Below, piece by piece: positions 4,109 through 34,280 of a stretch of DNA of 46,889 nucleotides. This DNA is from Nemertoderma westbladi. Taxonomy: Eukaryota > Animalia > Xenacoelomorpha. The notes beneath the pieces are model-generated. The model ran no database searches, had not been told where the DNA came from, and saw only the letters and a program-made list of their open reading frames with translations. Location: NCBI GenBank assembly GCA_032718475.1, contig JAUCBJ010002469.1, positions 1 through 46,889 of the forward strand. The letters are read 5' to 3'. How positions within the stretch are numbered: the stretch's first letter is position 1; every line of letters begins with the position of its first letter. Position numbers and translations under genes: made by a program.

Positions 4109-4686
4109 TGTTAGCGTATTCAATTCCGCTAACCAGGCTCACACAAAGTTGGTTTTAAGCAAAATTGGGAGCACGAGGTTGATTACCACTCAACCTCGTT
4201 TCACCCCAATAAGCGGGGACAACAGGCCCCAAGGGAACACACACAGCGGGGTTCAGAGGTTACACCTCCGGGAGGGAGAGAGAGACAGCAGCGGGGGGGA
4301 AGCTCCCAGGGAGATGGGAGGGTGAGAAGTGAGTTATTAGCCAACGGGGAGAAGGCATCCGCTGAGTAATGTAACACGGGCAACCAGTGCAAAATATTAC
4401 CGTTCTTGTGCCAATTTCATTCACTTAGTCAGTCAGTTTTATTTAGGGTAGAACGTGAACTCTTATTACCGTTTACTGCAGTCATCCATAATTCAGCTTT
4501 ACCGGTACAATTATATTCTACAATCGTGCTTACACTTCACTTGTTAATTCTACATTTTATATATATCATCTTACAACAAAGTCGGAATAACTCTCAACAA
4601 TCTAGAACTCTTTTCATACACATACGGCGGGGAACGCATAAGTCAGATAACTGGATAAACCGGGATCCTCGGTGGATCCCGTCACA
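4109..4686 (+). repeat. 5' LTR of copy A
   Basis: Runs TGTTAGCGTATTCAATTCC...GGATCCCGTCACA and is a near-identical direct repeat of 16124-16703 (roughly 95% by eye). Confidence 0.95.
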
Positions 4687-4739
4687 GTAATAAGATCCGA
4701 TTGTTGCCTGCTAGAAACTGACAAGTCAGCCAGACAAAG

Positions 4740-7700
4740 ATGAGTGAAAGAGAAACGACACCGCTGCGGACCCTGGACGATGATAAAGACCTAACAATCC
4801 GCGAGGCCGCAACGCGACGGTACCGACCCACGACGCCGGGTTCATCGGCCACAGGTGATCCGGCAATCCAGGAGGAGGGGGGCCGTCTACATCGAGAGGA
4901 TGAGTCGAGAGGAGGGAGAGACGAGTCGGGAGAGGAGAGAGACAAGTCGACACACAGCGGCGGTTGACATGCTGATGTCGCCGGCCAGCCACATGCCGAG
5001 GGCGACAGACGGCCCACCAGAACGGCGACAGTGGGGCCGCTGGTACGACGCCGGACCCGGAGGGATAAAGGAGATGTCGGCGACAAGGAAGTCGGGGTCA
5101 GCGACCGGCTCCGACGAGCCTATGCCGCAACCCGGAAGCAGCTGAGAGAGGCTAAAGGAGGGGCGAAGATAGACGAGGTGAAGTTAAAGAAGCGGCTAGG
5201 TGAGTCAAACAGACATTTTGATTACCTAATGCGTTTTGGGCAGGGAGAACTAGCCGATGAGAGAGCAAGAGGGGTTGCCAGCGAACTGTTCGAACTATGG
5301 GAATGTAGGGGTATGGAACCTAGCGTAGTGTACGTAGGGCCATACTTAGTCGATGCCCGGGGAGTAAAATTAGTGGGTTGGAGGAGACCACAGGAGAGCG
5401 AATCCGAGGTTAACCCCGAGGATTCGGTCTCATCGGTCGGAGAAAATTCCGGGAGGCGGGGGAAAGTTAGTAGGACGGGAAGGCGACGGGAGTCCGTCTC
5501 GACCGATAAGTCTGCTACATCCTCCGCGAAAGAAAGATGGGTGATCTGGCAGCACTAGACCAGAGAGAATTAGAGAGACAGGTAGAGGAAGGGAGTGCAT
5601 TATTAGAGAAGGAGAAAGAACTGGTTAGAGTGAACAGAGAGAGGGCCGAGAAGGTCGCTAGAAGCTTTAAGGAGTGCGAGGAAATAGGGAGGATAGAAAG
5701 GAAGGAGAAAAGAAGAGCGCGAGGCGAGAGAGCAGAATAGACGTGATGAGCGTGAGGCGAGAGACCAGAGCGAGTGAAAAGAGCGCAAGGCAAGAGAGCA
5801 GAATAGACGTGAGGAGCGTGAGGCGAGAGAGCAGAACGAGCAAAAAGAGCGCGAGGTGAGACGATTGGAGAGAGTTGCAAGAGAGGCTGAATTAGCCGAC
5901 CAGAGTGCGCTGGAGGATCTGGAAAGAGAGGCAACGGGGAAGCATGTGCGGGATGATCTGCATGCCCGCCTAAGGGGGCTTATTCATTATCAAGCCAAAC
6001 AGAAGCGCAGACTGGAACTAGCGCAGATAGGATTGTCAGAGAGCGAGACTGGCTCGAGTATTTACAAGGAGCCAAGGGCTGTGGAAACGTTTATTAATAC
6101 CCAACTTACAGGGACCGCACGACAGACCCAAGACTGGTGTGACCGTACGGGCGAGGGGGGGGGGGGTAATAATAATACAGTAGATAACGTTAATATTAAT
6201 AGTACCGTATTGGATAATTCTAACCAAACTTTCATTGCAGGAAATATTTTACCTAGTAGTAGTAATTTAAATTTAAATACAAATAGTCCTAATAATCTAA
6301 ACACTACAATAAATAATCTACCTAAATACCTAAGTACCTAAATAATCCGAATAGTCCTAATTCAAATAATCTAAATCTGAATTTACAAAATAATTCAAAT
6401 AATCTGAATTTACAAAATAATTCAAATAATATAAATTTACAAAATAATTCAAATAATATAAATTTACAAAATAATTCAAATAATATAATTACGCAAAATA
6501 ATTCAAATAATCTTACTTTGAACAAACAAAATAATTCCGTTTCTAATTTAGGCGTGCAAAATAATTTTATTGATTTGGAGGATTTAATTGATTTAACAGG
6601 TGATACTAGTAATGGTGCTATTAATATAAACGTGGCGGGCGCAGACGGCCCAACAAACGAGGGCCTGGTAGGCCACGCAGTTAATAGGCAGGGAGTGGCG
6701 GGGTTGAGTCAACCCGATGAGGGCCTGGTAGGCCACGTAGTTAGTAGGCAGGAAGTAGAGGGCCTGGTAGGCCACACAATAGCTGAGAGAGAGGCGGGGG
6801 TGAATAGACCCAGCCACAGTAGGGTTAATGTGTCGACTGGAGAGGGGTGTGGAGGTGAAGTGAGAGATAGTGAAGTAATAGGTGGCGAGGGGGGGCTACA
6901 GGAGCCCCACAACGAGAGATTAGTGGCAAGCGAGGGGGGGGGGGCAAGGAGTGTCCCACAAGCGTCGGCGGATAATGCGTGGGGCAAATTAGGTGAACTG
7001 CAGCACCCGGCAATGGAGAATAGCAGGGAGATTACGAGTATCCCCAGCGGCGTGCGATTGAGCAGAGAGAAGCAGGTTGACGTCGTGAGAGGGCGAGCGA
7101 CGAGACGTCGAGCCCAATCAGAAGAGGGAAGAAGAACAGTGGAGTTTAACCATGAGGTCGACGAGAGATCTCACAACCGGGGATACTGCACTACAGAGAG
7201 AAGAAAGGAAGAGAGTAGAAGAAGTGTTGCCGCGAACGACAGAAGAGCGAGGATGACTGGCGAGCCGTTGGTAGTAGAGGTGGAGACGGAGAGTCAGTGG
7301 GGTCGAACTTCGGGAGATTGCCATCGTCCCGGAGAAATGCGACCTGACAAGGCGTATTACACGCAGAGAGAGGGGTACAGGATGTACCGGCACGAGGACG
7401 AGAGCAGTAGAGGGGGTCGAAGAGAAACTTCGGGATATACCTACTGATCGAGAATACGGTAGCCGCGGGGAGGATTATTCGAGAAGGATAAACTTTGATC
7501 CCGAGCAATACATACAGACTGCAGGACATACTGTAGGCCTTACTGCACATACCATAGGCCATGCTGGGAGAAATAATGTAGGCGAACGACGGGATTAAAC
7601 CCGAAAGTCGCGGAGTATATACCGGCCTTTAGGCCGGAAGTAGATAGGCCTATACTGGTACCAGCACAGCAGTATGACTACAGCATGCAAGGACATAACA

Positions 7701-10700
7701 TATACACAGGCAGGGGAGGGGAGAATTATTGCGAATAGGTGTATGGGCCCCAATATATTAACATCAACCCCAGTACCAAACATACTGGTAGGGGGGGGGG
7801 GGGGGGGGGGGGGGGCAGGGTGACATTCCCCCATCACAATATTAACAATATACCCCAATAGGAGTAAGAACATCAAACCCCTTGGACGAGAATAGATCGT
7901 GCGACACAGAAATATGGAGGGGGCCACTACCCCCAATGATATATCCAAGTCAGAGGAAAGCGGCAGACAGGACGAACAGACCGAACCCAATGGGAGAACC
8001 TATACAGCACCCATCAAACCCATTGGAAGCGCAAGCAATGGGGATGGCCACGTTAATCGATGCATTAAAGACCAGGATCGAGTTACCACCCGTGGAACCA
8101 TTCAAATTCGATGGAAGTAGGCCGGAAGAATACCTACAGTTTCGGAGTATGTATAGTAATGAAATATTAACAATAAATTTGACGCAGGCAGAGTGCCTAA
8201 AGTATCTACAAGTGTATACAGGAGGCCCAGCATACAACATCGTGAGGCAATACAGGGCATCGAGGGTGGCTTCACGACGGCATGGCGGGCGTTAGACAGG
8301 GAATACGGGCACCCGGCCAAGATCATCCGTCAATCCCTTAGAGGCATAACATTGGGTGGCCTACACGATAACCCCGTTAGCATAAAGACATTCGCTAACA
8401 AAGTCGAGAAGGCGTTAATCGTGCTAAAGACGCTGGACGCGCCATACAAACTCAACGCGTCTAACAACATCACTATGATAGTGCAGGCACTACCGATTTG
8501 GCTGTGCAATAAGTGGAGAAAAATCGCTTTCACCACTCGAGATAGGAAGGGTATGGAACCGGGTTTAGAAGAAATGTCGAGCTTCTTAAACTATGAAGCT
8601 GAACTTATAACGGACCCAGTCTATAGCGAGGATAGCCTGGGAAAGGGTTCAAAGACCAATTACCACAGGCCAAAACCAGAGCACAACGCGTCGAACGCAT
8701 TGCCAAAGCTCAGACTATCATTGCCGTATGCAGCAATGGAGGGGACTACCAGTCCACAAGTAGCCGGGGGTAAGACCACATCATGGAGTGGACAGGGGAA
8801 AAATAACAACACAAATAAACATAACCCCAACACGCCCAGTAGGCCAAACCCAAACGATAAGAATAGTAGGGACTTTGGTACAAATACGAGTGCGATATGC
8901 AACGCACTTTATAAGGATGGCTACAACCCAAAGAGCAAATGCAAACTACATACAAATGCACTTCATCAGACCATGAACTGCAGGTACTGGCAAGCGCTAC
9001 CCAGGGAAGATCAGGTAGAATACGCGAGAAGGAATGAAATCTGCTTGCGATATGTGATGAGTGGACATAGAGCCAGCCAATGCAAGGAAACACCAATTAA
9101 GTTCAGTCAAAGTAAAGCTCAGACAATGGCAACAAGCACCATAGTGGCGAGGAAGAGAGGAATGGTACTATTAGGGGTAGTACCAGTAAGGATAATCGGG
9201 GAACGCAATCGATCAGTAACCACACTGATGCTGGTCGATAGTGGTGCAGCCTTCACCTTAGTTGAGGATTGGGTGGCCGAAGAGATAGGATTGAGAACGA
9301 GGCCAAGTAGAATGGCGGTAACAACCATCTCCAGCAAAGATGAGGTTCTGGAGATGAGGACCGGACGGTGCGCGATAGCAGCAATAGCACCGGGATGCAA
9401 CTATGGGGCAACCATCGACCCCATCCAGGTGATAGAGTTGATAAATATCAACGCCAGGCGGCCAACCAACATCAAGGTCGAACAATACAGATTCCTGGAC
9501 AGTATCGATTTCTCAATCCCAGAGGTGGACGTTAGGAAGGTGTCCATCATAGTAGGAATAGATTGCCCAACGGCCCATGAGAGAATGCAAACGGTCTTCG
9601 GCGAAGACAGGCAGTGTGACCCGGTGGCAATATTAACACCATTCGGGTGGACGCTAAGCGGCCCAATCAGGAGTAAGATACCATTTAGGATGTCGGAGAC
9701 ATCAGGATGCATGTTTGCGGGAACTATGCAAGAAATGGGAGATGAGGGAGCAGAGGAGCATCTCAGGAGACTGCTCAGACAGGATTTTGAGGGATTAAAA
9801 GTGACCGGGGTCAGAACCTCGGTAGAAGATAAGCAGGCTTTACAAATTGTAAAGGAATCGATGACATGCGATGAGGGGCGGTATACCACAGGAGTGGTAT
9901 GGAAGCTACCGAAGCTAACGTTACCCGCCAATAAAGGGATGGTACTCACGAGGCTTTGTAAGTTGAAGCAGACGCTAAAACGGAGCCCCGAGAAGAATGA
10001 GTACATTCACAAGACAATCAGAAAGTATGTCAAGAAAGGATGGGCTGTGGAGTTACCGGTCAACAAACCAAACACGGACAGGACCTATTACATGCCACTC
10101 CACGTGGCTCTAGACCTGAAGAAAGGTAAACTGCGGATGGTAGTTGACGCATCGGCCAAGACCAACGGCAAATGCCTAAACGATTATCTGCTGGAGGGTC
10201 CCAACATCTACAACTCAGGGATCGAGGTCCTACTCAGATTCAGGAATGGTAAACACGCTTTCACCTGCGACATCGAAGGCATGTTCAACCAAGTCCGTGT
10301 AACGGAAGAGGATAGCGACAGTCAGCGCTTCCTATGGTACGATGGCGACAAGGAACCGTCGACCATACCGATGTATAAGATGATAGTACAGATTATGGGA
10401 GCCAAGTCGTCTTCGTTTACAACGACTGTGGCCGTAAGAGACACGGTAGAAGGGAAGGAAGATAAATTCAGCGCCAAAGCTGTCGATATGATTCGACGAA
10501 GTTTCTATGTAGACGACGGGATGGAGTCTGGAAATACGATTAAGGAACTACTGGACACAGGGCGCGAGGTTTGCGACATCCTAAAAGGATCCGGGTTCAA
10601 CCTAACCAAGTTCCAATCCAGCTCGCAAGAGTTCATGAAAGCCATAGAGGACAGGAGGCCAGAGTCGACCATGGATAATCCCACAACAGCCAAGGGACAG

Positions 10701-11683
10701 TACATGGCAAACAAGAGAGTGGAGTCCCAGCAGAAGGCACTAGGGATCGTGTGGAACTGAGAGACAGACAAGTTAAAATACCAGTTGAGTCAGGAGGGCG
10801 CAGGTATCCCCACAAAGAAGGGCTATGTGTCGTATATAGCGAGGATATACGATCCCCTAGGCCTAGCATCCCCATTATTAGTCACGGGGAAACAGATACT
10901 CAAGAGAGTATACAAATTAAAGGACGAATGGGACACAAAGGTCCCGGAAGAGATTAGCAAGCAATGGAGCAAGTGGACAGAGAGTTTAGAGCAGATGGGA
11001 ACATACAGCATGCCACGTGTAGATTTCCCGGATGGGGACATGATGAATCTGGATCTGCACATGTTCTCCGATGCGTCATTAGAAGCATACAGAGCGGCAC
11101 TCTACTTAGTACAACGAGAGGGGGTTCACAAGCCCAGACGCGCATTCAGCAAAGCGAAGTCGACGCCACCAAATTCAGCATCAGTTCCGAAACTCGAGTT
11201 GACAGCTGCGAGATTAGGAGTTAGGGCCACAGCCTACTTAGTGGACGCTATTCCCAACATAGTGGAAACACACTACTGGACGGATTCCATGGTAGTGCTC
11301 AGTTGGCTACATAACGAAAGGACGAGGTACCCTATATTCGTCACAAATAGGGTGGATGAAATAAGGGTGACCACAGAGTTAGAAAGGTGGCACTACTGCC
11401 CACCGGACGAGAACCCAGCGGACTCCATAAGAGAAGCAAGTGGAGGAACACGAATAGGGAGTTAAAAGAGGGTGATCTGGTGATCGTCACGGACGATACC
11501 ATCATCAACAACCAGTGGCGATTAGCGAGAGTTGTGGGCACTTACTCCGATGAGGACGGAAGAGTCCGATCGGTAGAAGTGCGGATAGGTGGCAAAATAG
11601 GAGCGAAAGATAAAAAGACCTACAGAAGGGCTGTAGGCAGGTGCTGCCTACTAGAGGGAGCACCTAAGATGAGTAGCGTTTAG
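4740..11683 (+). pseudogene. BEL/Pao gag-pol of copy A, broken by stops and frameshifts; integrase core absent
   Basis: Gag FKFDGSRPEEYLQF...YTGGPA; degenerate knuckles CKLH..H....C and CLRY...GHRASQC; protease LVDSGAAFTLV; RT KLRMVVDASAK, DIEGMFNQV, QRFLW, FYVDD; RNase H HMFSDAS, PKLEL, WTDS, NPAD; C-terminal RSKW...LKEGDLVIV...WRLARV...DGRVRSV. The longest open piece is 8193-10760. Confidence 0.93.
6345..6515 (+). repeat. 27-bp coding tandem repeat (NNSNN[L/I]NLQ) in the Asn-rich Gag segment
   Basis: About five AATAATTCAAATAAT(C/A)T(G/A)AATTTACAA units. The homologous Asn-rich block in copy C is at ~35615-35890. Confidence 0.8.
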
Positions 11684-11789: not shown

Positions 11790-12380
11790 AGGCAGATGGA
11801 AGTTAGTTAGTTAAGTAGTTAGAAGGTACGTAGTACCGTTAGGAGTTAGTAGTTAGAAGGTATGTAGTACCATTAGGCAGATAGTAAGAGTTAGTAGTTA
11901 GAGGGTACATAGTACTGTTAGTTAGTTGGAGAGAGTTAGAGTTAGTAAGAGGGTACGTAGTACCGTTAGTTAGTTGGAGAGAGTTAGAGTTAGTAAGAGG
12001 GTATGTAGTACCGTTAGTTAGTTGGAGAGAGTTAGAGTTAGTAAGAGGGTACGTAGTACTGTTAGTTAGTTGGAGAGAGTTAGAGTTAGTAAGAGGGTAC
12101 GTAGTACCATTAGTTAGTTGGAGAGAGTTAGAGTTAGTAAGAGGGTACGTAGTACCGTTAGTTAGTTGGAGAGAGTAAGAGTTAGTAAAAGGGTATGTAG
12201 TATCGGTTAGTTAGTTAGTGGATTTAGAGGTTAGTAAGAGGGTACATAGTATCGGTTAGTAAGAGTTAGTGGAGTTAGAAGTTAGAGGGTACATAGTACC
12301 GGTTAGTAGAAGTTAGTTAAAAGTTAGTAAGAAGAGGGTACATAGTACCGGTTAGTGAGAGTTAGTGGTAGAAGGGTATA
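11790..12380 (+). repeat. 48-bp tandem array between pol and ORF2 in copy A
   Basis: Unit GAGTTAGTAAGAGGGTACGTAGTACCGTTAGTTAGTTGGAGAGAGTTA; the GGGTA core recurs at 11951, 11999 and 12047. About six good copies with degenerate flanks. Confidence 0.9.
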
Positions 12381-12860
12381 TATATAATGTAGATAATAGT
12401 TAGTAGTGAGCAGCGAGAGGAGGGCATATGAGTACAGCTGGATAAATCATGTAGGCCACGCGACACATACTGTTGTACTGCACAGGCCCACAGAGTGGGC
12501 CAGAATGTGGATTATGAAGTAGAGTAATACATCGGCGATAATAAGTAAGTAGTAACACAGTAGTACGATAGTAGCACAGTACGATTAAATTAAAATAAGA
12601 TAAGAATTAGAAAATTAGATAAATGATGGTAACAGTAGAAAGAAAATTCTGGAACATAATTAAAGTAACGGACAAAAATTGCAATTTAGGGTACAATTTA
12701 GCGCTTTTAGAAATTAAATAGGAAAAATTAGGCTATAACTCAAAATTAAGTAGGAAATAGGCCATTGTCGAACTGTACAGACCATCTTAAACTTATCACT
12801 CATCTGTACTGTGCCTTGGCAAGGCACCACCTTACAGGTGAGTGAGTGAGAGAGTTTGGA

Positions 12861-15428
12861 ATGGTGGGGAAACTGATCAGGAAGAGAAAGGCGGAGTCAG
12901 GAGGAAAGGAGATACTGGTGGATTTCACCAAGAGGCATCCGGAAGAGAAGACAAGGGGATACTATGAGCGGTTAGAGAGAGGTCATTAAGCGCAAGCGCT
13001 ACAAGACCATTTCAGGGAGGTGCACAAACAGTGGCTGGTCGGGACCTACGGGACGCCGTCGCTGGACAATGCAATCTTCGAGCATTTCCTCTACGTGATG
13101 AAATGAGATGAGGTGAAGTTCGGGATTCCGAAGTATGCGAGAGAGCCACCGAGGAAAAATTGGAAGAGGTTCGTAGAGTCCATCAGCAGAGAAGGATACA
13201 TGGTCCTAGACAATGAGGGGACCGTGGAAGACAAGGAGGGTTTGAGGAGAGGATTGGCGGGGTCGGCTAGAACCATACTCCTACATTTGGCTGCACCAAA
13301 TGGGGATATATTCCTATTCGTTCTAGGAACGTATGGAAAGAAGGACGGGCCAAAGTTGAACCGGTTGCCGAAGGCGGTGCAAACCCTAGTGAGAGAGAAG
13401 TCAACGACGAAAGTGGGATCGGCGATTCGCGACCACGCGGAGAGAATCATCGGTCCGGACACCCCCAACCTTCTGGATATGCAGACGGTCTATATGGCTA
13501 TGACAGCACTAGACGGGTTGGGACTAGTGGAGAACACAGGACATTGCGGGGCGGTAGCAATGGGCCAGCTAATGGGGCTCGTGTGTCACAAACCGATGGA
13601 TTGGAGCAAGTTCAGAGAGGAGTACGGAGCGGACTTGGAGAACTCGCTAAAGTGGGGAGTGAGGCCAGGGAGACAAGAGCTGTATCAATTCCGGAGAGGA
13701 GCGATAAAGGTATATCAGAATCGATATATCCTACAGGAGGACTGGATAATGATAGGTTTGCTTAACCTATTCATGACCGTGGTTATCGAGAGGGAACCAA
13801 CGGCATTCCTATTATCAGGATCACCCCTAAGATACAAAAAAGCCTTTAAGATGGCTTTCAAGGGTCTGGTAGACCACCCGGGGATGAAGGGCGAGTCGGT
13901 GTACTACAACAGCCGAAATCTGGTAGACGGGGAGGTAGATACGCCGTATCAGAGGTGGGAGCAGCTAGAGGCGGATAGACGAGAGGCAAAGCGATTGGAA
14001 GAAATCGCTAAAAAGGAGAGGAGGGAAGCAGAGGAAAGGGAGGAGGAAGCTAGGGCACAGAGCTATGGCTTTGAGGAACAGGCGGCCTTAGACAAACTAT
14101 GTTGGACATCGTCAGGGAGTTTGGGGGAGTCTCTAGGGCGAGAATTAGGATGGACGGTGGGATCACCGAAACAGTCGAAGTCGGGATTGCAGGCGACGCC
14201 CATACCAGCGGGCGCCGAGGGAAACCAGCCACTAAGGAGGCTAGGGGAGCTGGAAGGATGGAAAGTTACAGGCGAGAGCCAAGGCGGGAAGGGACACAGT
14301 GGGTCCACTGGGATACTGGGGTTGGAGCCACTGCCAGAGGAGGATGAGGACGATGACGAGTTCGGAGAGATGCTGCCCATCGGGAGGATCGGCCACTCGG
14401 ACACGGACTGGGTTGGCGGGAGGGTGGTGACGGCCAGTGGGGCGAGGGCCTTCTGGGATAAACCTGGCAAGCAGGCCTGGGTGCATGAGGAGCCGGCGAT
14501 GGATTTCGCGGGGAGCGCTATCAGGTTGGGCGAGCAACCGGGGACGGCACCACGGGAAGTATTCGGAGAGACAATGCCCGGGAGGGGCAAGGAGATCGAT
14601 GTAGACAGGGACGCTAACGTCCGGAAGTTTGCTTACCAGCGACTCCACAGACCACGGAGATCGCTTGGGACGAAAGACGGCGTGGGGCGGGAGACATTGG
14701 TGCTCGGCTGTGACTACTGTGGGAGACAGACCCACCAGGAAAGGAGATGTTTGTACCGGTTTCAGAAAGGGACTAGTTGTCTCTACTGCCGCGAGTCGAG
14801 CCACAGGAGGGGGGCGTGTCCACGGTTGCACAACCGGTGTTCGAAGTGCAACTTTTGGGGACACTACGGATGCCAGTGCGACTGGATGGACGACAAAGAG
14901 AAGTTTAGGATCTTTGAGGAGTGGGCCGACATCTGGGCCATGACTCGGCAACGCATGAAGGCCCAGGAGTTCCAGTGGGGCTTCTTTAACATCAACCAGG
15001 AGGCCCACATGGAGATTATCAAACGGAGGCTTCCATTTACCTACCAGGAAGTGGCGACGGCAGCGTCGTATGCCGGAGTGATAAATACGCAGAGGTATTT
15101 GGACAGGTGGATGCCACAGAACAGAGGAGAGTTCAGGGATTTCTTGGCGGAGCATGTGCCGCGGGCGATGAAAGTGATCCTATGGGACGCCACCAGGGGG
15201 AGACAACAGGGCTATTCGGAGGGGACACCCACGAAGCGATACCGGGAGCTAATAACACCGGCGCCCAAGGAGTCGACGACCGGGATTAGTAAAGAGGTGA
15301 TGGCGAGGGTCAGGAGCCTAAAGGGCGATAAGACCAAAGGAGCGGCAGCAACCAGGAAACGACCGAGGGAGGAGGACGACAGAGGGAAAGAGTTGAGGTG
15401 GTTCCCGAAGTCAGGTGGAACGAACTAA
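12861..15428 (+). CDS. Accessory ORF2 of copy A: DEDDy-like 3'-5' exonuclease domain, coiled coil and three CCHC zinc knuckles
   Basis: A 771-codon open frame at 13113-15428, with an in-frame ATG at 12861 separated from it by two stops. Motifs VLDNEG, LLHLA..G.IFLF, LPKAV..LV......KVGSAIRD, LLDMQ and YQNRYILQED; three CX2CX4HX4C knuckles at 14709-14879; basic RKRK at the N-terminus and RKRPR near the C-terminus. Confidence 0.8.
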
Positions 15429-16086: not shown

Positions 16087-16123
16087 ATGCTATCTTCTCA
16101 CCGGGAAGATAGCATGGGGGGAG
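16087..16123 (+). promoter_or_regulatory. Hairpin plus polypurine tract of copy A
   Basis: ATGCTATCTTC-TCACCGG-GAAGATAGCAT followed by GGGGGGAG directly abutting the LTR TG. The same arrangement occurs in copy C at ~42964-43001. Confidence 0.85.
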
Positions 16124-16703
16124 TGTTAGCGTATTCAATTCCGCTAACCAGGCCCACACAAAGTTGGTTTTAAGCAATATTGGGAGCACGAGGTTGATTA
16201 CCAATCAACCTCGTGTCACCCCAATAAGCGGGGACAACAGGCCCCAAGGGAACACACACAGCAGGGGTCAGAGGTTACACCTCCGGGAGGGAGAGAGAGA
16301 CAGCAGCGGGGGGGAAGCACTCCCAGGGAGATGGGAGGGTGAGAACTGAGTTATTCGCCAATGGGGGTAAGGCATCCGCTGAGTAATGTAACACGGCCAA
16401 TCAGTGCAATATATTACCGGTTCTTGTGCCAATTTCATTCACTTAGTCAGTCAGTTTTAGTTAGGGTAGAACGGGAACTCTTATTACCGTTCACTGCCGT
16501 CATCCATAATTCAGCTTTACCGGTACAATTATATTCTACAATCGTGCTTATACTTCACTTGTTAATTCTACATTTTATATATATCATCTTACAACAAAGT
16601 CGGAATAATTATCAACAATCTAGAACTCTTTTCATACACATACGGCGGGGAACGCGTAAGTCTGATAACCGGATAAACTGGGATCCTTGGTGGATCCCGT
16701 ACA
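16124..16703 (+). repeat. 3' LTR of copy A
   Basis: Direct repeat of 4109-4686; ends GGATCCCGTACA, one base shorter than the 5' copy. Confidence 0.93.
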
Positions 16704-19089: not shown

Positions 19090-20897
19090 GAATATCAACA
19101 TACAGTCATTATAAATATGAGGAAGATATTAGAATGCTCCTGGAGCATATTCCTCACCAGAAGAGTCCTCATCTCTGGGTCTCTTCTTTGTTCAAATGCA
19201 AGCAGTTCTCTGAAGACAATCTCGATTGGAACGCTTGATCCGGATATCATCCAGTTGTTGCAATCCATTCACAGAATATTGTCCTGCATATATTCCGAGT
19301 TTCTCTAGAACTTTGAATCTTGATATATTTCCAGAGTTAAAGCATGATATAGCATCATATGTCCCAAGCTCAAGAGTTTTATATCCAACAAATACCCGCT
19401 TGGGGCAACAAACCCAGATTGAGTTATTGACACTCTCATTACAATTTTGAGTTTGCCCATGTAAGCACTTCCTCAAAAGATTCAAGTTTGATAGATCTCT
19501 GAAAATTGGTCGAATCTCATCCATAATTGCAATTGGAAGTGAATGTTTATGATTATAAGCTTCTCCAGCAATGAGGGATTTGTTGTATCCACACCAGGTG
19601 TTATCCTCTTTGGGGCATAATCCATGTTGGGGATTCTCATTTGTGGACATCTTATGGAAACGGATTGCTTGGACAGCACAATGCATTGCTTGAAGATCAT
19701 GGGTATTTCGTCTAATTGCCATCCCATAGTAGAGTTGGAGAGAGTTTATGGTATTGTCTGTAAGCCGGTTTCTTCCTCCTATTGTTTTACTATCAGATAA
19801 TTTCTTACCCTTGAGAGAGGTCTTTTAGACGCCGCAGTCTACATCCCATCCTTTTCTGTACATGCCCAATGCATTATAATTTGGTTATTGAGCAATCACT
19901 TCCATATGGTTGACTATTGGTCACCGTAGAAAACGAACTACTATCTCCATAACCAAGATATTTTGTATATCTAACACCATACATATCCACAGAGCGATTG
20001 AACATCATCTTGGCACCTACAACCTCCATTCCACCGCTTGTACCTTCATAGTTTTTGATGCAGATCTCCTTGTGTGCATCTTTCACACTTTGAGGCTGAG
20101 ACTGAATCTTGATGCAACCATGGCAGAATTTAGAGACACATGCACATCTGTGACCTTACCAGTATCCATTGATGTCATTGTTACAACTCCATTGAGAGAC
20201 TTATGTCCTCGACGTTGCCAACTACCATCAACACATACAGCAATATCAGTGGCATTATCATTGGCATTTACTGAAACAGTTTCCAATCAAGCATCCTTCA
20301 TAGTTTCTTTAGCTACTGCTTTGACTGCTGGCAGAATTACATCATAGGTTCTTTCAAAATGCTGAATGGGAGATTGTATACCCATTATTGCAGCAAATGT
20401 TTTAGCTCCTTGGACCTCATTCCATATGCAAAACGAAGATTGCTCTCATAGTGTGTCCTGCCCTTCTTGTTTGTGGATACTTTTGCCGGAGGTGATGAGT
20501 CAAATGGTACATAATTGAAACAAGAATGGCATTTCAATTGGAAGTTTGAAGCCAGTCCACACTGTATTTGTTTTTCAATTGTGATATTTGAACCATGGCA
20601 ATGTTGACAGCAAACAATTTCAGAAAGAGCAATATTCAATAATTCTATGTCCATAAGTTCAAACCCATCCCTAGATGAACTGTAGTCAGGAAATCCTAGA
20701 GTTCCAGGAACAGCAGCTATCTTTCTACTAGAAGCTGATTGTCGCTTATTAGTACCAGTTGTTTCAATAGGGACAACTTTTGCATTGCTTTCAGTGGCAG
20801 AACTACTGCACTGAGCACTACTGCCGGTACTGACTGCTGGCTTGTAACGGTTTCCTCTGAAACGCCGTTTCTTCATAAAGCTTGAACATCGGGGCAT
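19090..20897 (-). pseudogene. DDE transposase pseudogene (Kolobok-type; often labelled Mutator-like)
   Basis: Fragments CQHCHG..CHSC, VCVDGSWQRRGHKSLNG, GTSGGME, YTKYLG(Y)GDSSSF, CIGHVQKRMG, YYGMAIRRN, HGLCP....WCGY and TQNCNESVNNSIW..PK, broken by frameshifts and stops. Confidence 0.85.
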
Positions 20898-21779
20898 CTT
20901 CAAGCAGGTACGGACCAAGGTGTGTAAGTACCATGTAGTAAAAAACAATCAATAAATTATATCACAGAAAATAGTTGGATAGTAGTCATATATTATAGTT
21001 ATCTAAAAGCTTATAGGCCTACTTGTAAATATTTTCTGTTTTTTTTATGGCAGTATGGATATCATTGGGTACCTACTCCTACAACCATATTATACTAATA
21101 TAGGCCTATAATTTACAAAATCAAAACTTCTGCTACAAGGTACAAATGTATGAAGATGTATGTGTTTTTCAGATAGGCAGTCAAACTATAGGAGAGTACC
21201 GGTACCTCAAACCCTCAAAAAGTGTGTAGGCCTATATGATATTGTGATAGCAGCTTTAGGCCCTGTTTGTAAGCAGAATATAACATTGATTGATGACAGA
21301 CACATACATATAATATATAATGTTTTATAAGATCTTCAGACTCTTCAAAGAAAGTTGTCAAGTAGCGAAGCGATTGAAACAAGACAGTAACAATGTCACA
21401 CATTAGACTGAAAATTTTACTAAAAATAACGGCAGTGATTTTTTATGTCCTTTTATTTGACTTTTTTTGTCCTTTTTTTTACGAATTATGCATAATGACT
21501 TTTGTTGTTTTCTTAATGACTTTTATTGTCCTTTTAATGACTTTTTATGTATGTATTTCTTCAAACTGTCAGACTGCTGATTTCTGGACTGTCAGACAGT
21601 TGATTTCACTATGCCTGTGCCAAAACATTCCATGATTCCATGATTTATAGACTATGAGATAGATTTCCATATGCGCCTGTGGCCTGTGGTATTTAATAGT
21701 TTGTGGTTGTTGTCGATGATCGATTACCACATGACGTAGCAAAACACTCATTTCATAGCCAAAAACAATTACCAATTGA

Positions 21780-22279
21780 TGGAAAGGAGCTGGTTAAGGC
21801 CGAGTTTTCTAACCAAAACAATAAACAGTCACTTTTCCAAATCAGGAAAAGGAGCAGGTTACAAAGACGGGATTTTCTAACCAAAACAATAAACGATCAC
21901 TTAACTAATTGAGGGAAAGGAGCAGGTTACAGATGCGGAATTTTCTAACCAAAACAATAAACGATCACTTAACTTATTGAGGGAAAGGAGCAGGTTACAG
22001 AGGCGGGATATTCTAACCAAAACAATAAACGATCATTTGACTAATTGAGGGAAAGGGACAGGTTACAGAGGCGGAATTTTCTAACCAAAACAATAAACGA
22101 TCATTTAACTAATTGAGGGAAAGGGGCAGGTTACAGAGGCGGGATTTTCTAACCAAAACAATAAACGATCATTTTACCAATTGAGAGAAAGGAGCAGGTT
22201 ACAGAGGCGGGATTTTCTAACCAAAACAATAAACGATCCTTTAACTAATTGAGGGAAAGGGGCAGGTTACAGAGGCGGG
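21780..22279 (+). repeat. 68-bp tandem array (~7 copies) inside the Kolobok-type element
   Basis: Unit TTTTCTAACCAAAACAATAAACGATCATTTAACTAATTGAGGGAAAGGGGCAGGTTACAGAGGCGGGA. Confidence 0.9.
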
Positions 22280-23484
22280 CCTTCTGTGCTGTTGGAAGTA
22301 GTGGTGCCGCTATCCGTAACACTACTCAGGACAGTAGTCATGATCCATTATTGATTATAAAACTAATACAGTAATAGGTCTAAATTATGTGAAAGGTATA
22401 TCCACATTTTCCACAATCCTGCAATCCAGTTTGGCCTATCAATTATTTCAAATGTATTAGCACAACCGGTAGGCCTACCATTACCGTATTTAAATGGTAG
22501 GCTACACAGTAGGCCTATAGCAGTACCGGTGCCAGTACCGGTACTAAAATACAGAAATATCTGCTTTATACCTACATCTGTACATACAATACAGCAAAAT
22601 AGTGCTATATATACTAATACCGGTACTGATAGCCTGAGAGAACATCAGTAGAGAAACCGGTAGCATGGAACCTAACATTAGACTTTTGGAGGACATAAAA
22701 AATCATAAAAAAAGGACAAAAAAAGGATTTAAACGGACAATAAAAATTATTGCGAAAAATAACTGCAGAAGTAGAAGTTTGAAATTCCCTCCATCATATA
22801 AATTGAAGAAAATGTTGATTTGAAACTCATAATAACAGCATCTATAGATACTGTATTTGACAGATGTATTGTTTGATAAAAAGTAAGTCAAAGTCTCAAA
22901 AATCCATCGGACATACACAAAAGCGAGGCAATTTTTACAATCTTCCTGTATTGATATGGACTCAAAATTTTACCACAGTGAAGACCATATGTGAATCACC
23001 AAAAAACAATCAAAAACTCAATTTTTATTTTTTTTAAATATTTTAGTGGTGTGCTGCCCTAACAGTTTAATCTGCTAATTTATTTGTCTTATAATACCTG
23101 ACAGCCCGTACAAATATGAACACAGCCGAAGCCAGTCTGTGCGGCGTAAACCCACTGGAGGTGGGAGACTGGATTCTATGGCAGAGAGAGATGTAGGCTA
23201 CTTTGTATTATTCGATTGATCTTTACTATATAATCTCTAAAAACTATGTATATTTTAAGTTAAATACTAACAGTTCCTTTCAGGTGCTGCGCTCACACTT
23301 ACACAGATGACACGTTCGTAGGGTCTTCGCGCAGCACTAAGTGAGCAAAGCCTTTATCATATGGGTACCATTAACGAGTTGTCTGCAGTTAGTCAAAAGT
23401 CTTCAATACAATACTCGTCCTCCTCTTGTGCCTAGTTGCGTTCGTTCGTTTTTGACGAAACTTCAGATTCTTTCTAAACTTTGA

Positions 23485-26072: not shown

Positions 26073-28752
26073 TCAATCCTTCTTTCTAGAACGACTTTTA
26101 CGGAGTTTCTTGAAACTTCGGGTAGTTGTAGTATTTTTCTCCGCAGCACAAGCCACTTTAATAGGAGGGCTATAACTCCTCGGAGAAGGGTGCAATATAA
26201 TTGCAACAGAAGGGTTGGGGTTGCAGTTGGTGTATCCGCCGGTCGAGGTACCTGGTTGGTCAATATCAATAGGAGCTCCACTTCGAGATTATAAGGAACT
26301 TCGATATCACACGTTTATTGGAGGATCGAAGGGCGCACGATCTTTAAACCTATTAGTACCGGGCTATAAAATGTTGTACAAATACCAGGGGGGGGGGGGT
26401 GTCGGATTGACCCCCCCCCCCCCCCCCCCCCTCTAAAATCTACAAATTTTTACGAAAACGTCTGATATTTTGTATGTACGTAGGTATCACTAGTGTGAAT
26501 CCGACGCGAAAACAGAATTTTCGAAAAAATGTACTGGGGTGGTTATATTGCAGCACCAAAATTACAAGTAGTGTACAATTTTCACAAAATTTGAAAGATA
26601 CATTTTACGGCTAATTGTTTTTCAATATAGGTTTTCTGGGACGGAAAATACATTGGAAATATTTAAAAATTATATGATTACTATAAATAGCTGTTTAGTC
26701 CTCTCTGCGTAGGAAAAATATGAAAAAAACAAATATAGTTTTCAAAATATGGTGCTAGCACCACATTTTGCACCCACTTCCGAAAAATACAAGTTTGAGA
26801 TGTCTAGTTTGATAATTATAAATTTTATTGAATTCAGAATAGCCGTAAAACTCTAAAATGCAAGAAATAAATTGTCACAAGCAATTTTATCTATTGAGTG
26901 GATTTCCAAAATTTCGTGCTAGCACCAAAATTTGCACACAGCACCGAAAAATACAAGTTTGATACGGTGCTGGCACAAAAAATTGGCACACGCCGAAAAA
27001 AACAAGTTTGAAATTTCTAAATCATTTATAGGAATTCAATCCAATTGCTAACACCAAAAAACCGGTGTAAATCAAAAATAGAAATGTTACAATTCATATT
27101 TAATGAAATGTAATTATTTTCAAATAACATCTCAAAAAAAAGTGCCAAAAGTAGTGTTAAAAATGGTGCTATAACTCGAAAACTACTCAATATTTTTGAA
27201 AACGGTTTTCACTACTAGGAAGACAATATATTTTTAGGAATAGTCATAAAATTTCAGATTCCCAACTGCGTTTGTTTCAGAATTATAATAAAAAAACCAC
27301 GGGGTTTAATAGGGTTAAAGCTAGTCTCAGTACAGCAGCTTGGACTGGTCATCCTGCTTTAGTCGTCTGCATGACTGCCATCGGTTGGCCGTGAGTCGTA
27401 AGGAATTTTCGGGGTTTCACAGTTCTTTCTTATTCCCGTTCCCTTGCCTTATATTCGTAGGGACGTCGGTGGACTTCCTGCAGCTCGGGGTGTGCATTTA
27501 TAAATTTCTCACCGTATTCCATGTCTTGGCTAATGCAACCAAGTAAATTATATAAGTCCAGATTATTCGGTTTGATATTCTTTAAATATTTTCTCACATA
27601 TTTGGTGGAAATATACTCACCAATGCGTTTTAGTAATTCATAACTGGGAATACGAGTTTTCTGCTCGATTTGGAGAAATAGATAGGGGTGAAATGCTTAC
27701 ACTCCCTCATAGGCGCGTCCAGGATAGTAACGATGTCGCGAGTCGCATTGAAGATCTGCGCTAGCTTCCCAAGCTCATATGTATGGCCACACAATTAACT
27801 CGTCTACGCTTTCCATGTCGGGGCTAAAAGGGGAATCCCAACTAGCGTATCCTTTTAACTGACAATAGTGATATTGCGTCATAAACTGGGGGCAGACAGC
27901 AAAGATGTGCTTATTATTAACATGACAATAAGCACAATATATCCCCATTTGGGGTTGGTCTTTGAAGTAGGAACAGACTTCATCAGAGGTCAACAGGGTA
28001 GTGTGATCGTGAGAGGCGCATATGCGGCAGCGCTTTCGAGAAATGTGGCTGGCGTGTCTATAACCATAGGCAGTAAGACTTTTGCGGTCCTTGATACCAC
28101 TCCAGCGTGTGATCATCGTCACTACTACGAGGGGCTATTGGCTGGATTTCATCCACCTCCATACAGATCGGTTCCTCGTCCGTCTGAATAATTCCTACGG
28201 GAGTAGTTATTCTTTGCCCAGGGTCGACAGTTTGTATTTCCATAACCGAATATCCAAAAATGATTTTAGGTCTCTGCAGAATGGGGGAATGCATATTCCG
28301 TATGCACACATCTTTGAAAATAGCAAATCCGGCACTATCTAATTTCTCAGCAGCTGAATAACACAGGTTGAGTTTTGTCAGGCACGGTTTTTAAACTGAC
28401 TATCAACGTTCCGAAAGGGAGTCAGAAAACGCCTGAAACATTCAAATCGGATGAATTTGATGTGTTCATCTAATTTTGTTTGTTTAGTTCCAAGAATTAA
28501 TGGGTGTGAACGGATGGTTCAACTGCACACACCGGCTAACAATCCGGAAAGTGTGCTATTTTCGAATATGGTATAAAATGGCAAAGGAAGGACAAAGGGG
28601 CACAATCATAAAACTATCAACTGCTCCAGGTGCCGTCAATGGTCCATCGAAATATGAACGTGAATAATGGTCGCCATAAACCTTCTGGTAATTAAGCGGA
28701 TTTCCAAATTTAAAGTTACATCCATACTTTTAATACGCTAAATGTCCGACAG
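26073..28752 (-). pseudogene. Divergent homolog of accessory ORF2 in copy E, interrupted by MITE 26348-27314
   Basis: Manual translation: GHLAY*KYGCNFKFGNPLNYQKVYG; CRICASHDH...C, CAYCHVNNKHIFAVCPQFMTQ(Y)HYCQLKG(Y)ASWD(S); AWEASADLQCDSRHR; basic end FKKLRKSRSRKKD*. These blocks are colinear with ORF2 of copy A. Confidence 0.7.
26348..27314. mobile_element. piggyBac-like MITE
   Basis: TTAA|ACCTATTA...TAATAGGG|TTAA, a subterminal polyG-loop-polyC hairpin, and internal GCTAGCACC/GAAAAATACAAGTTTGA repeats. Confidence 0.8.
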
Positions 28753-29359
28753 TGTAAGCGGAATCAATTCCCTGCACTACCCACCAAAAATGGGCTTAGT
28801 GGCATTTTACAAATTATAGTTGGGAAGGTGACATTACCAATAATAATGTCACCTCATAACCAACTTAGGCGATACACATCGCCAGCCACAGAGAAAGTTG
28901 AGAGGTCAAACCCTCTCAGAGGGGTAAAGGGGCTAGCAGGGGTTAGCACGTGGGGACAGTGGCAACAGGGAGTGGCGAGGTGACAATTAATCAGGTTAGG
29001 CAATGATGGGAGGGGAACACAGATTGGGAGCGATTAGAACGCATCTACTGGCCAGGTCACTCAATACCGTAGCAGTGATTAATATGTGTTAATAATATAT
29101 AACCGTTGCACTTATTGATTCTGATTCAGTTGTTATCTATACAGTTGTGAGACTGGAACAGTTTTTAACCATTGTCATTACCGTGCTATTATATTCTGAC
29201 TGTGTTATTATTACGTTCTGAGATTATAACAAAACTGACAGTAAAAACTCAGTTATTTCCATGGCCTCCGGCCTATTATATATATCCAGACCACAGCTTT
29301 TAGCAGCCTACAAACACCGGTCGGGATCCATACTGCCAACTCTGTTGGATCCCGTCACA
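28753..29359 (+). repeat. 5' LTR of BEL/Pao copy B
   Basis: Runs TGTAAGCGGAATCAATTCC...GGATCCCGTCACA (same terminal motifs as A and C) and is followed by gag. Confidence 0.85.
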
Positions 29360-29421
29360 GTTAAAAACCGTCAACAACTCAACAACCATTTAAATAAACT
29401 GTGACCCCAACCAGCCCCAAC

Positions 29422-30474
29422 ATGAGCAAACACGAGATGCTCCAAGGTCCAGAGTAAGAGACGAGCTTGCCATGAACCCCGAGCGACAGAGACAAAATGA
29501 TTCGTGAAGCAGCGACGAGGCGGTACCAGCCCAAAACACCGGATTTGCCAACAAGGGATGCTCCAGTCATTAAGGAGGAGAGTGGCCGAGTATGAGGAGG
29601 AGAAGAGAACGAGTAAATGCGAGATCAGAGGGCAAACGAGCCGAAGTCGCTGGCCAACCATTGGCCAAAGGCGCCAAATGTTGATCGCGCAAACAAGCAA
29701 ATGAGGTCGAATGAGCAATCACCTACAACAAGGGTACAATGCCACAAGGAATTTGTTGAAGGACACTAGAGAGGGAGGAAAGGTAGACCAGCCCAAGTTG
29801 TACCGGAGGCTAGGTGAGTGCAACAAACATTTTCACTACCTAGTCCGATTTGGGCAGGGGGAACTAGCAAGTGAGAGGGCGAGGGGGTTTGCCACAGAAC
29901 TGTTCAAATTGTGGCTATCTGAGGTGGTGGCGCCTAGTGTGGTGTACATAGGGCCCTATCTAGTAGATGCAAGGGGGATTTAGTTAGTGGGATGGGCAGA
30001 CCAGCAAGACACCAAACCCGAGGTTAACCCCGAAGATTCAGTGTCGTCGGTTAGTAGGAATGCTAGTTCCATTAGTAGGACAAACAGGCAACGGGAGTCC
30101 GTCGCAACCGAAAAGTCCACTACATCCTCCACAAAAGCAAGAAGGGTGTTAGAGATAGATCTGGCGTGTCATCTAGACATTGTCGCGCTGGATCAAAAGG
30201 AACTAGAGAGACAACTGGATGAGGGGACTGCGTTACTAGAAAGGGAAAGGGAGATAGTGAGAGAATGTAAAGATAGAGCCGAGAGGGTGACGAGAAACTG
30301 TAGAGAGCGGGATGAGAGAGAAATGAATGAGTGCAAAGAGCATGAGGAGCGGGAGACAAAAGAGGAAAATGAGCGCAAGGTGCGGGAGGCGAGAGCATTG
30401 AAAGTGAAGCAAACGAGCGTAGAGAGCGGGAGGCGAGGGATGCAGAGTTACCTGATCAGAGTATTAAAAAGGAT

Positions 30475-30629: not shown

Positions 30630-31545
30630 GTGGTGCACCAGTGTTAAAGCCCCCGATGACCCTTGGTCATCCTTCGGTACACATAATGGCTTACCATCTG
30701 CCCTCTGCCAGCCCTGTGTGCAACACGTCTCCTCTAACTAACTATCCTGTCTCCATTGTCTCCCTTCGTCATTGGCTCCTCTTCCTTTGGATTAACCTTC
30801 TTACATCCTCTCTTTTTCCACCTTGTCTTCTTATTCGACCTCCTTAGTATCGGTAAATTCTTTATACCCTCTAAGATTGGCGTCTCTTCCGGACATCTCT
30901 CCAGATACCTTGCCATCCACTCTTCCCCATACCCATACTGATACTTGCCAGGAACGTCTTTGTCCCATCCCATTGCCTCTAGGTCCTGTGCGTCAAACCA
31001 ATTCTCCTCCGCCCACTCCCTTGCTGTTACTTGTCTCCTCTACCAATGGTACTTCTCCAGATTCGTCCTCTACCATTTCCACTATACGTGGATCCAGATC
31101 CATACCCACCCCAACTCCTGATATCCTTTCCCGGGCTGCTTCTCATATGGGACCTTCCTATCTCCCATCCTTGACTTGTGATATCCTTCCTAAACGGTAC
31201 TGGACAGCATGCATCCAGATGTTTTGCATACGCCAAACACTTTGTGTCATTGCCAAAAATGGTTTGTAGCCTCTCGTGGGCTGTCGGACAATCCATGCTG
31301 ACTATAAGAGATACTTTCGGGACAACCGGTTCGGGCATGGAGAAGTCATTGTCGATTGCTCTATATCAATCTTTGTAGGTCGCCTGGCGTTAATGTTGAT
31401 CGACTCTATTATTTTTATGGGTTCAATCATAGCCCTATAGTCGCACCCTGGTGTCATCGCTTCGATTCTACACTGTTCTGTCATTATCTTCATGACCGTG
31501 ATTTTGCTGGAGATCGTGGTTACTGTCATTTTACTTGGCCGCAGT
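30630..31545 (-). pseudogene. Inverted fragment: protease C-terminal region of the same family joined to an unassigned coding-like segment
   Basis: VTTISSK...PGCDYRAMIEPI...ININARRPT, VSLIVSMDCPTAHER and KTSGCM match copy A. The stretch 30630-31180 has no recognisable match. Confidence 0.7.
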
Positions 31546-31549
31546 AGTG

Positions 31550-32552
31550 AGATGGGGAGGCCATTCCTTCTCTTCTTTACTTAGCAAGTCAGAGCCACCT
31601 AGCCAATCTGGCGTATCTGTCAGATCTTTGGGTGTAGCTCCTCTGGAGGCAATGTCGGCTGGATTGATAGTCCCAGGGCAATGTCTTCATTGGTCTACTT
31701 TAGTGTGACTAAGTATAACAGCTACACAGTTAGTAACAAAGCCACTGAACTGGCAGACTTTGTTAGTCAAATATTCTAGAATGAGCAATGCATCTGTCTA
31801 ATAAACAGTTTTCTCCAACGGACATTCTATCTGATTGGTAATATTCCTGCCGATGGTGGTTGCGCATAATGCCGCATTTAACTCCACTCTAGGGACCCAC
31901 TGTTTGTTGTTTATCAAAGCTTTTGAGGCGGTCAATGAAACTTTAATTCCTTCCGGAGTTTTGACCCTCAAATAGGCTACTATACCTATTCCAATATTGC
32001 TGGCATCTCCAAACACGTGGAGTTGATTGGAATAAGTGGGGAGAACGTGACCGAAATATGAGCGGGAAATCTTAAAGTCCTCAATAGGTGGTAAAGAGTC
32101 TTTGCACTTCATCCACTTCTTCAACAGTTCTCCCTTGAGAGGGTCATCCCAAGAGTGGTTTTCGAGCCACATTAGCTGGACTAGACTCCAAGGAACCAGG
32201 ATTACAGGACTAATAAATCCTTACGGATCGAAATACGTGCTCAGAATACTCAGGCAAATCCTCTTAGTTTGAACAGGAATATTGCATTGTTTTAATTGTA
32301 AGAACAAAATATCCCTCTCTGTATCCCACTTCAGTCCGAGGGTTTTAGTTTCCGGGAGGTCTTCTTTAAGGAGGTCGAGATCTTTAGCACCTCGTTCCTT
32401 TTCTGGGATCGCCTCCAGAAACTCACGGGAGTTGCTGGTGAATTTAGTTAATCAGAATCCACTGCATTGAAGACACTCTAGCATTCCCTTGGAAAATTCT
32501 ATAGCTTCTTCCACAGTAGGTAGTGACTTGAGGTTGTCGTCCATGTAGAGTA
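31550..32552 (-). pseudogene. Divergent BEL/Pao RT C-terminus and RNase H fragment, possibly the pol of copy E
   Basis: LYMDDNLKS, TKTLGLKWD, STYFDP*GFISPV, SWDDPL, LHVFGDAS, PRVELNAA, *TDA and RHCPGTINPADIASRG. Confidence 0.85.
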
Positions 32553-34224: not shown

Positions 34225-34280
34225 GTAAAACAATCACCAACTATCGCTGAAACTGGGACTGCAGACGAGTAAGTAGAAAG

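Follow-up and report, generated by a model that had tools for sequence, protein, structure and literature searches.

We found that positions 12861–15428 of a 46,889-nt contig from the xenacoelomorph Nemertoderma westbladi (JAUCBJ010002469.1 of assembly GCA_032718475.1, analyzed over its full length and hereafter called the window) are the third gene, ORF3, of a decayed, integrase-less, multi-copy BEL/Pao long terminal repeat (LTR) retrotransposon. The gene joins a predicted DEDDy-type exonuclease domain to three zinc knuckles and an unnamed conserved block, here called the WGF block. We hold with about even confidence that it encodes an accessory RNA-binding and 3′-trimming protein that would act on the element's own RNA.

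The third gene and its carrier element

ORF3 comprises 855 codons on the forward strand, with stops at codons 43 and 82 in the window element that carries it (copy 1). The open frame beyond these stops, 13107–15428, has 773 amino acids from stop to stop, or 771 when counted from 13113, which reproduces the lengths given in an initial annotation made from the sequence alone (a 771-codon frame, and about 855 codons from the ATG at 12861 across two stops). That annotation had also placed the gene between pol and the polypurine tract (PPT), and indeed the pol remnant ends at 11683 and the PPT lies at 16116–16123. The protein begins with an extension containing RKRK, a possible nuclear localization signal (12861–13106), the first 12 codons of which are also kept in a second copy of the element in the window (copy 2, at 42194). 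Next come the DEDDy-type domain (13107–13940; ExoI D at 13209 and E at 13215, the ExoII column at 13434, ExoIII Y at 13725 and E at 13737), a long E/K/R-rich helix that may be a coiled coil or a single alpha helix (13944–14099; AlphaFold helix 280–331, with a predicted local distance difference test score (pLDDT) of 72–85 over 291–320), and a disordered linker that is unconserved across the family alignment A1 described below (14100–14700; pLDDT <50). Three CX2CX4HX4C zinc knuckles follow (14709–14879), the C and H columns of which are invariant in the family alignments, and then the WGF block, FE..AD.G..T..R......WGF...Y (14913–15050), the signature of the family, for which we found neither a Pfam match nor a PDB sequence match. 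All of the motifs named in the initial annotation were recovered at their positions (VLDNEG with its D codon at 13209, LLHLA at 13278, KVGSAIRDH at 13410, LLDMQ at 13470, YILQED at 13725, FEEWAD at 14913, and WGFF at 14976), as were its three exact knuckles, which start at 14709, 14778, and 14838 and are the sole matches across the six frames of the 46.9-kb window. The predicted helix and the low-pLDDT stretch after it agree with the coiled coil and disordered linker proposed there, and the layout is likewise not that of an env gene, which would have a signal peptide and a transmembrane anchor: the highest 19-residue hydropathy mean is 1.48, with no clear transmembrane helix, and the predicted fold is that of a nuclease.

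No Pfam family matches ORF3. An HMMER scan returned 28 proteins at E values up to 0.001, and ten of these, with the window protein and one cluster mate, make up alignment A1. Against PDB, the A1 profile matched the trypanosome RNase D TbRND (7c45, E = 1.6e-7, nuclease and fingers in order), EXD2 (6.5e-7), Egalitarian (5.9e-4), WRN (0.02), and the knuckles of Lin28. With the nuclease part alone, EXD2 scored 8e-7 and TbRND 1.8, so the exonuclease–finger fusion may be convergent. Folding of ORF3 from its single sequence was of no use (pLDDT 36). With an AlphaFold model built from A1, all 20 Foldseek matches listed at E ≤ 0.001 were DEDDy proteins, and VIA-align placed Nibbler (Z 13.1, root-mean-square deviation 3.4 over 197 residues), WRN (12.7), and RNase D (12.6) close together. 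Because these scores are tied and identities are only 9–16%, the superfamily can be assigned while no single donor can be named. The A1 profile, Foldseek, and VIA-align thus agree on the DnaQ-like DEDDy fold that the initial annotation had expected, and the N-terminal domain is predicted to belong among the DEDDy exonucleases (EXD2, Nibbler, WRN, Egalitarian, RNase D). An HRDC domain was not matched by Pfam in the window protein, the 28 homologs, or ten ORF3s of relatives, and the model shows a long helix and disorder in that place; this absence is weak evidence, since Pfam also misses the nuclease itself.

Among 51 aligned nuclease rows, 23 have both the ExoI DxE and the ExoIII acid, and six of these 23, the window protein included, have Glu at ExoIII. 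The ExoI D-x-E of the window protein is present (D35 and E37 of the open frame), and its ExoIII reads Y-x3-E, as in five other rows, where the canonical form is Y-x3-D. Given the six rows with Glu, we take this to be a variant of the family and not a shift. The ExoII column of copy 1 holds His, with Asp one residue before it; catalytically intact relatives mostly have Asp at the column itself. Of the two acidic positions that the initial annotation took to look shifted or substituted, ExoII thus shows a His private to copy 1, and ExoIII is not shifted but aligns as the Y-x3-E variant.

Copy 1 is 12.6 kb long and is bounded by a 5′ LTR of 578 nt (4109–4686) and a 3′ LTR of 580 nt (16124–16703), both TG...CA, 95% identical to each other, and within the 0.2–1.2 kb expected of Belpaoviridae; its flanks differ, leaving it without a target-site duplication. 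The gag-pol region (4740–11683, forward strand) is interrupted by many frameshifts and stops. From its frames and Pfam matches it encodes a weak DUF1759 (E = 0.024), an aspartic protease (2e-5), a weak reverse transcriptase (RT; 0.004), and the Pao RNase H (Peptidase_A17, 2e-38), followed directly by DUF5641 (8e-16), such that the BEL/Pao-specific domains (Peptidase_A17, DUF5641, DUF1759) are present with the order protease–RT–RNase H. Nothing in the pol of copy 1 matches residues ~1548–2032 of an intact relative, the integrase core, which is absent from both long copies in the window, with nested breakpoints (near 11430 and ~41150). We read this loss as a deletion in derived copies, because the DUF5641 tail is still there, a 5-bp target-site duplication flanks copy 2, and relatives carry integrase, and we file the window copies as defective derivatives and not as complete BEL/Pao members. 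ORF3 starts ~1.18 kb downstream of the pol end, beyond a 48-bp tandem array (11809–12368). At the far end, an 11-bp hairpin runs into the PPT (16087–16123), which precedes the 3′ LTR as is usual in BEL/Pao; the hairpin folds at z −3.5 in copy 1 and +0.5 in copy 2, where its inverted repeat is kept nonetheless.

Separately, since long copies without integrase are what the window holds, the family in the source species may be non-autonomous. A splice-donor-like GTGAGT stands just 5′ of the ORF3 ATG in both copies (12838–12843 and 42173–42178); a splice acceptor at 12837 was considered and is unsupported, copy 2 retaining the GTGAGT but not the AG. A loose end, X5, which we take to be like a cDNA template-switch adapter, was too weak to count as expression.

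A family of related third genes

Single-protein searches and an A1 word-index search returned nothing, though relatives exist in the collection, and a third search gave five family members. Relatives were found by a pattern for the WGF block in metagenome contigs, which yielded 91 loci, 66 of them matching A1; none were found in viral contigs, and none by close match in metagenome contigs. A gag-pol was present at 45 of the 66 A1-positive loci (tblastn with intact relatives), on the ORF3 strand in all 45, and at none of the 25 other loci; 17 of the 21 A1-positive loci without it are <5 kb. Nine long gag-pol ORFs extending to RNase H were scanned, and each has Peptidase_A17, DUF5641, and a match to the integrase zinc finger or core. 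Homologs, as the initial annotation had proposed to check, thus lie inside BEL elements, in a count of element-borne context that leaves out P0003, P0005, P0007, P0016, P0022, and P0028. The knuckle segments are diverse, forming 49 clusters at 93% among 63 segments.

By their motifs, these relatives form three clades in which the nuclease is intact, dead, or absent. The second clade comprises 21 loci that lack the ExoI and ExoIII acids, and the third (L008, L019, L026, L067) has ORF3s, long ones in L008, L026, and L067, in which no nuclease was detected while the knuckles and WGF block are kept. The triple knuckle and WGF block are therefore the constant part across the family, a constancy that is partly due to the selection of loci by the WGF block. 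A tree of RT–RNase H (25 rows) and one of the nuclease (35 rows) both split the intact from the dead groups with starred support and have several sister pairs in common.

Selection was evident both among relatives and within the source species. Over 22 chosen pairs of relatives, dN/dS was 0.04–0.21 for the nuclease and 0.00–0.22 for the knuckles plus WGF block (19 computable in each case), with several dS values near saturation. For the source species, contigs of three DNA runs (from two studies) were aligned on 13060–13480, and 40 of 47 variant rows were examined. Third codon positions hold 15 of the 20 variants at intermediate share, first positions four, and second positions one (p = 1.7e-4), in contrast to the even spread (seven, seven, and six) of the 20 that are nearly fixed. 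Neither of the two ExoI acidic codons varied among the 40 rows, and the ExoII His and the stop at 13104 are private to copy 1, at least 98% of the depth in each of the three runs differing from it. The 12 indel rows examined, from a total of 36, all lie outside ORF3. Between 4086 and 6477 contigs per DNA run align over ORF3, a measure of depth and not of copy number; copy number and host context in the source species were judged from short run contigs only. The family is under selection in the source species while copy 1 decays. Of the 20 changes private to copy 1 in 13060–13480, 12 are located at TpG or CpA dinucleotides, as would be expected if methylated CpG had decayed there.

The low dN/dS and the third-position bias supply the purifying selection that the initial annotation had called for. 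Of the three outcomes it had named as counting against its claim (no DnaQ match, a neutral ORF, and capture of a host gene), all were checked and none refuted it. That ORF3 is a host gene passively captured in copy 1, or a chance motif match, would accord with the lack of a Pfam match, the broken state of copy 1, and two loci, L065 and L078, whose contigs (3.7 and 2.5 kb) carry the gene but lack pol. The 49 knuckle clusters, the uniform co-orientation with gag-pol, the strong purifying selection, and the many third-position-biased copies in the source species largely refute this explanation, to which we give next to no probability.

Two loci stand apart. In L007 (5073–10817), ORF3 lies between direct repeats without a gag-pol match, possibly a non-autonomous element that keeps only ORF3, and L065 (79–2022, P0001) has a degenerate nuclease and two tandem knuckle–WGF modules on a contig without pol. 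The motif also matched 19 loci in prokaryote genomes, one of which, L097, gave a marginal profile match without any match to nuclease or pol; we attribute it to chance.

Expression, priming, and proposed role

In 12 of the 13 dead-clade families with a clear junction, ORF3 is in frame with gag-pol after UGA-C (L004, L010, L013, L022, L031, L032, L038, L040, L041, L048, L058, and L059; L054 is the exception), with the junctions of L017, L023, L035, and L045 left outside the count. The stop is followed by CAAUUA in five of the 12 families and CGG in two. At these loci, which were chosen for the junction, the 2472 codons of spacer after the UGA-C are free of stops, whereas the other two frames have 66 and 43; for the 935 codons before the first Met, the figures are none against 27 and 15. 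A two-part stem-loop begins 9 nt after the stop, with 85.7% of cells paired (42–51% in a slid control) and both sides altered in 13 of its 14 pairs, although the stem was drawn from folds of the same sequences, which favors the covariation result. Covariation is the sole support for these stems, as single-sequence folding was mostly unremarkable (three of 12 at z ≤ −2). On these sequence features, the dead-clade ORF3 is predicted to be a read-through fusion to Gag-Pol. In four intact-clade families (L043, L050, L055, L066), no more than 8 nt separate the ORF3 ATG from the pol stop, and L061 has ACG at that place, an arrangement that suggests stop–start coupling.

A short intron was present in the ORF3 linker of L050, L061, L063, L072, and L076, three of them with GC-AG ends. 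Such introns explain the frame changes in ORF3; L043 precisely lacks the intron of L050. Programmed frameshifting in the split ORF3s was accordingly set aside, most of them having no slippery sites, and overlapping alternative frames in these genes were read as GC-rich shadows.

In all three window elements examined, a TGG tRNA-type primer site is absent after the 5′ LTR, and the first 9–10 nt there pair perfectly with a corresponding site inside the LTR, the letters differing each time. In copy 1, the primer-binding position (4687–4695) is complementary to an LTR-internal 9-mer at 4461–4469, a candidate self-primer (both on the forward strand; 13 of 5000 shuffles); the other pairs are 34039–34048 with 34225–34234 (4–6 of 5000) and 29161–29169 with 29360–29368 (18 of 5000). 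Shifted windows also reach 8 and once 10 matching nucleotides, so chance is not negligible. The predicted pair probability is ~0.9 in two elements and 0.03 in copy 1, which is not predicted to fold in this way. tRNA genes were looked for and none were found. The pairing looks like Tf1-type self-priming, and we treat it as a lead. The initial annotation had described the gene without the variation of its family (dead or absent nucleases, read-through, and introns) and without the missing integrase and missing tRNA primer site of the window elements.

We propose that the knuckles and WGF block would grip single-stranded RNA and pass its 3′ end to the nuclease, by analogy with the CCHC fingers of the trypanosome enzyme TbRND. 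Little of the protein would be made, its synthesis being tied to that of Gag-Pol (in relatives, probably through read-through or stop–start), and it would act inside the element's ribonucleoprotein or particle. RNA binding would be its core job and trimming an extra that some clades have dropped; in the lineage of the window element, one candidate substrate is the 3′ end of the self-primer. A role on the element's own RNA is favored because the binding module is constant and coupled to Gag-Pol. We are doubtful of a bolder version, in which a BEL/Pao lineage swapped tRNA priming for self-priming, with its own knuckle-guided exonuclease trimming a 5′ transcript fragment back to the duplex at the LTR edge, which would then form the primer, and in which programmed UGA read-through would join the sister clade's version, by then an RNA clamp with a dead nuclease, to Gag-Pol.

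Several findings weigh against a trimming role on the element's own RNA. Relatives have ordinary TGG-type tRNA primer sites (18 of 20 pattern matches look like LTR ends), so primer trimming cannot be a general role of ORF3. Read-through was seen only in the dead-nuclease relatives, and the window element has a separate, distal ORF3. Its RT is at most 30% identical to those of the relatives and sits on a very long branch, such that co-descent with them is not shown and a module swap is possible, and all but two of the 59 positive loci listed (57) trace to seven assemblies with similar names, which limits what they say about host breadth. Concerning the enzyme, the AlphaFold model built from the 12 sequences of A1 is modest (mean pLDDT 47.8, nuclease blocks mostly 50–81), the catalytic competence of a Y-x3-E ExoIII is only putative, and Nibbler, a small-RNA trimmer, ties for the best structural match, which suits an anti-silencing role equally. 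Finally, Rodriguez et al. 2017 reported, in the parts of the paper drawn on here, no clear departure from neutrality and no copy-number benefit for the comparable ORF3s of rotifers (PMC5408684).

Anti-silencing, which the initial annotation had also entertained, is the main rival reading, and we hold it tentatively. ORF3 would degrade, trim, or sequester host piRNAs or siRNAs, or act as a decoy for the partners of Nibbler, Mut-7, and EXD1, with the dead forms only binding. In its favor, the EXO domain of Nibbler heads the VIA list and Foldseek matched EXD1; the accessory gene position, the basic RKRK motif, and the many copies in the source species are all in keeping with this role. The ends of piRNAs are 2′-O-methylated and would resist such nucleases, which counts against it. 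It also fits less well in view of the two clades that have a dead nuclease or none, in one of which ORF3 is apparently fused to Gag-Pol, a fusion that in 12 families links the product to particle stoichiometry. Overexpression of TbRND does reduce a small guide-RNA population, according to the sections of that study drawn on here (PMC7797062). Between the two roles, trimming of the element's own RNA is thus the one we favor.

The introns in relatives' ORF3s mean that intron-containing genomic RNA must leave the nucleus, and ORF3 could conceivably be an adaptor that binds a structured element of the genomic RNA and brings about nuclear export of the unspliced form or its delivery to the germ line, in the way that the nuclease-like domain of Egalitarian binds localization signals. 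The top rows of Foldseek include Egalitarian–RNA complexes, one of which contains an I-factor signal, and dead nucleases remain under selection (dN/dS 0.14–0.21 in divergent pairs). Nevertheless, catalytic motifs are kept in about half of the aligned rows (23/51), and fusion to Gag-Pol would be an odd route to an export factor, making this role unlikely. Good EXD2 and WRN scores would also suit a DNA exonuclease which, in the manner of EXD2, WRN, or the exonuclease within Dada transposases, would serve as a proofreader for RT or trim the ends of cDNA ahead of integration, and read-through would put the nuclease right behind integrase; the DEDDy domain of Dada transposons has been proposed to process cleaved 3′ ends, in the portion of that report used here (PMC3706591). 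However, it is in the catalytically dead clade that ORF3 would follow integrase as a fusion, and the CCHC knuckles together with the RGG-rich tails of relatives point to RNA, for which reasons we judge a DNA substrate quite improbable.

Beyond copy 1, the window holds the second BEL/Pao copy (33640–43591, forward strand), which is ~75–83% identical to it over pol and has lost all but the first codons of ORF3. A related third element, cut short within gag, lies at 28752–30400, inverted fragments of a Pao protease and RT–RNase H at 31160–32586 (minus strand), and an additional LTR piece at the window end (46401–46889). Mutator-like transposase fragments (19195–20948, minus strand) and a 68-bp tandem array (21729–22347) were also present.

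Comparison with known systems

Belpaoviridae share with the window element LTRs, gag, the protease–RT–RNase H–(integrase) order, a PPT, and a third gene after pol, but third genes in that family are listed only as env-like, whereas that of the window is a nuclease–knuckle protein (PMC8742986). The window copies further differ in lacking the integrase core and the tRNA-Arg/Gly primer site, and copy 1 exceeds the 4.2–10 kb range of the family (PMC8742986). For BEL/Pao, the literature searched yielded no description of a nuclease ORF3, of read-through, or of self-priming. Subscription papers, supplements, Repbase, and GyDB lay outside that search, so an earlier account may exist; the word "exonuclease" is absent from the main text of PMC3118150 and PMC13524379.

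Among cellular proteins, EXD2, WRN, Nibbler/Mut-7, EXD1, and Egalitarian share the fold predicted for ORF3, a class that spans active trimmers and dead RNA-binding forms. TbRND, the closest to ORF3 in architecture, is the best PDB profile match of A1 and has a DEDDy exonuclease followed by tandem CCHC fingers, which supply RNA binding and raise cleavage (PDB 7c42–7c45; PMC7797062, in part). TbRND itself is cellular, and a linker of 28 residues precedes its four fingers, while ORF3 is retrotransposon-borne, with three knuckles that are set behind a linker of ~250 residues and followed by the WGF block. We thus do not file ORF3 as TbRND-type, although it may work like TbRND. The initial annotation had cited Rrp6 with Air1/2, compared with which trypanosome RNase D makes the better model, and Pfam gave no HRDC match.

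For expression, read-through signals elsewhere include UGA-C, CAR-YYA, and a stem 8–9 nt after the stop (PMC3159437), and SIRE1 provides a precedent for read-through from pol into env (PMC2829016), both as described in the portions of those papers used here. The third gene one stop beyond pol, the UGA-C or CAR-YYA context, and the stem position resemble these SIRE1- and alphavirus-type arrangements, with the differences that read-through is predicted in the relatives only, that the carrier is BEL/Pao and not Copia, and that the fused partner is a dead nuclease with knuckles. For priming, Tf1/Sushi, Tcn1, and TAR elements have, as here, a primer-binding position complementary to a stretch inside the 5′ LTR and not to a tRNA (PMC4600332, PMC6317226). 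BEL/Pao is not among the cases described in the parts of these papers drawn on, the match here is 9–10 nt, and the transcript start is only presumed.

Among retrotransposon third genes, the nearest counterparts are the DEDDy ORF3s described for the bdelloid rotifer elements Juno, Vesta, and Athena/Terminons (PMC5408684, PMC6431247, PMC5718144). These bear out the rotifer part of what the initial annotation said on DEDDy extra ORFs; for its other part, the nematode Cer elements, no report was found in the literature searched. Like the BEL/Pao ORF3, those of Juno, Vesta, and the Terminons are non-env genes that follow pol and encode an RNase D-like DEDDy exonuclease of putative function. All are rotifer-specific lineages, with a DEED motif, and the sections of PMC5408684 drawn on here neither describe them as BEL/Pao nor mention any knuckles in ORF3. 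Compared by description, the family reported here differs in its BEL/Pao carrier, DED[D/E] motif, triple knuckle, WGF block, dead and nuclease-less clades, read-through, and introns. Two of its features, the predicted read-through into a third gene and the candidate self-priming, are ones for which we found no description in BEL/Pao. DEDDy third genes have so far been an unexplained rotifer oddity without clear selection, and in BEL/Pao such a gene is maintained in dozens of families by strong purifying selection. Given the new conserved domain and a natural series of intact, dead, and nuclease-less forms, the use of such a gene to a retrotransposon becomes directly testable.

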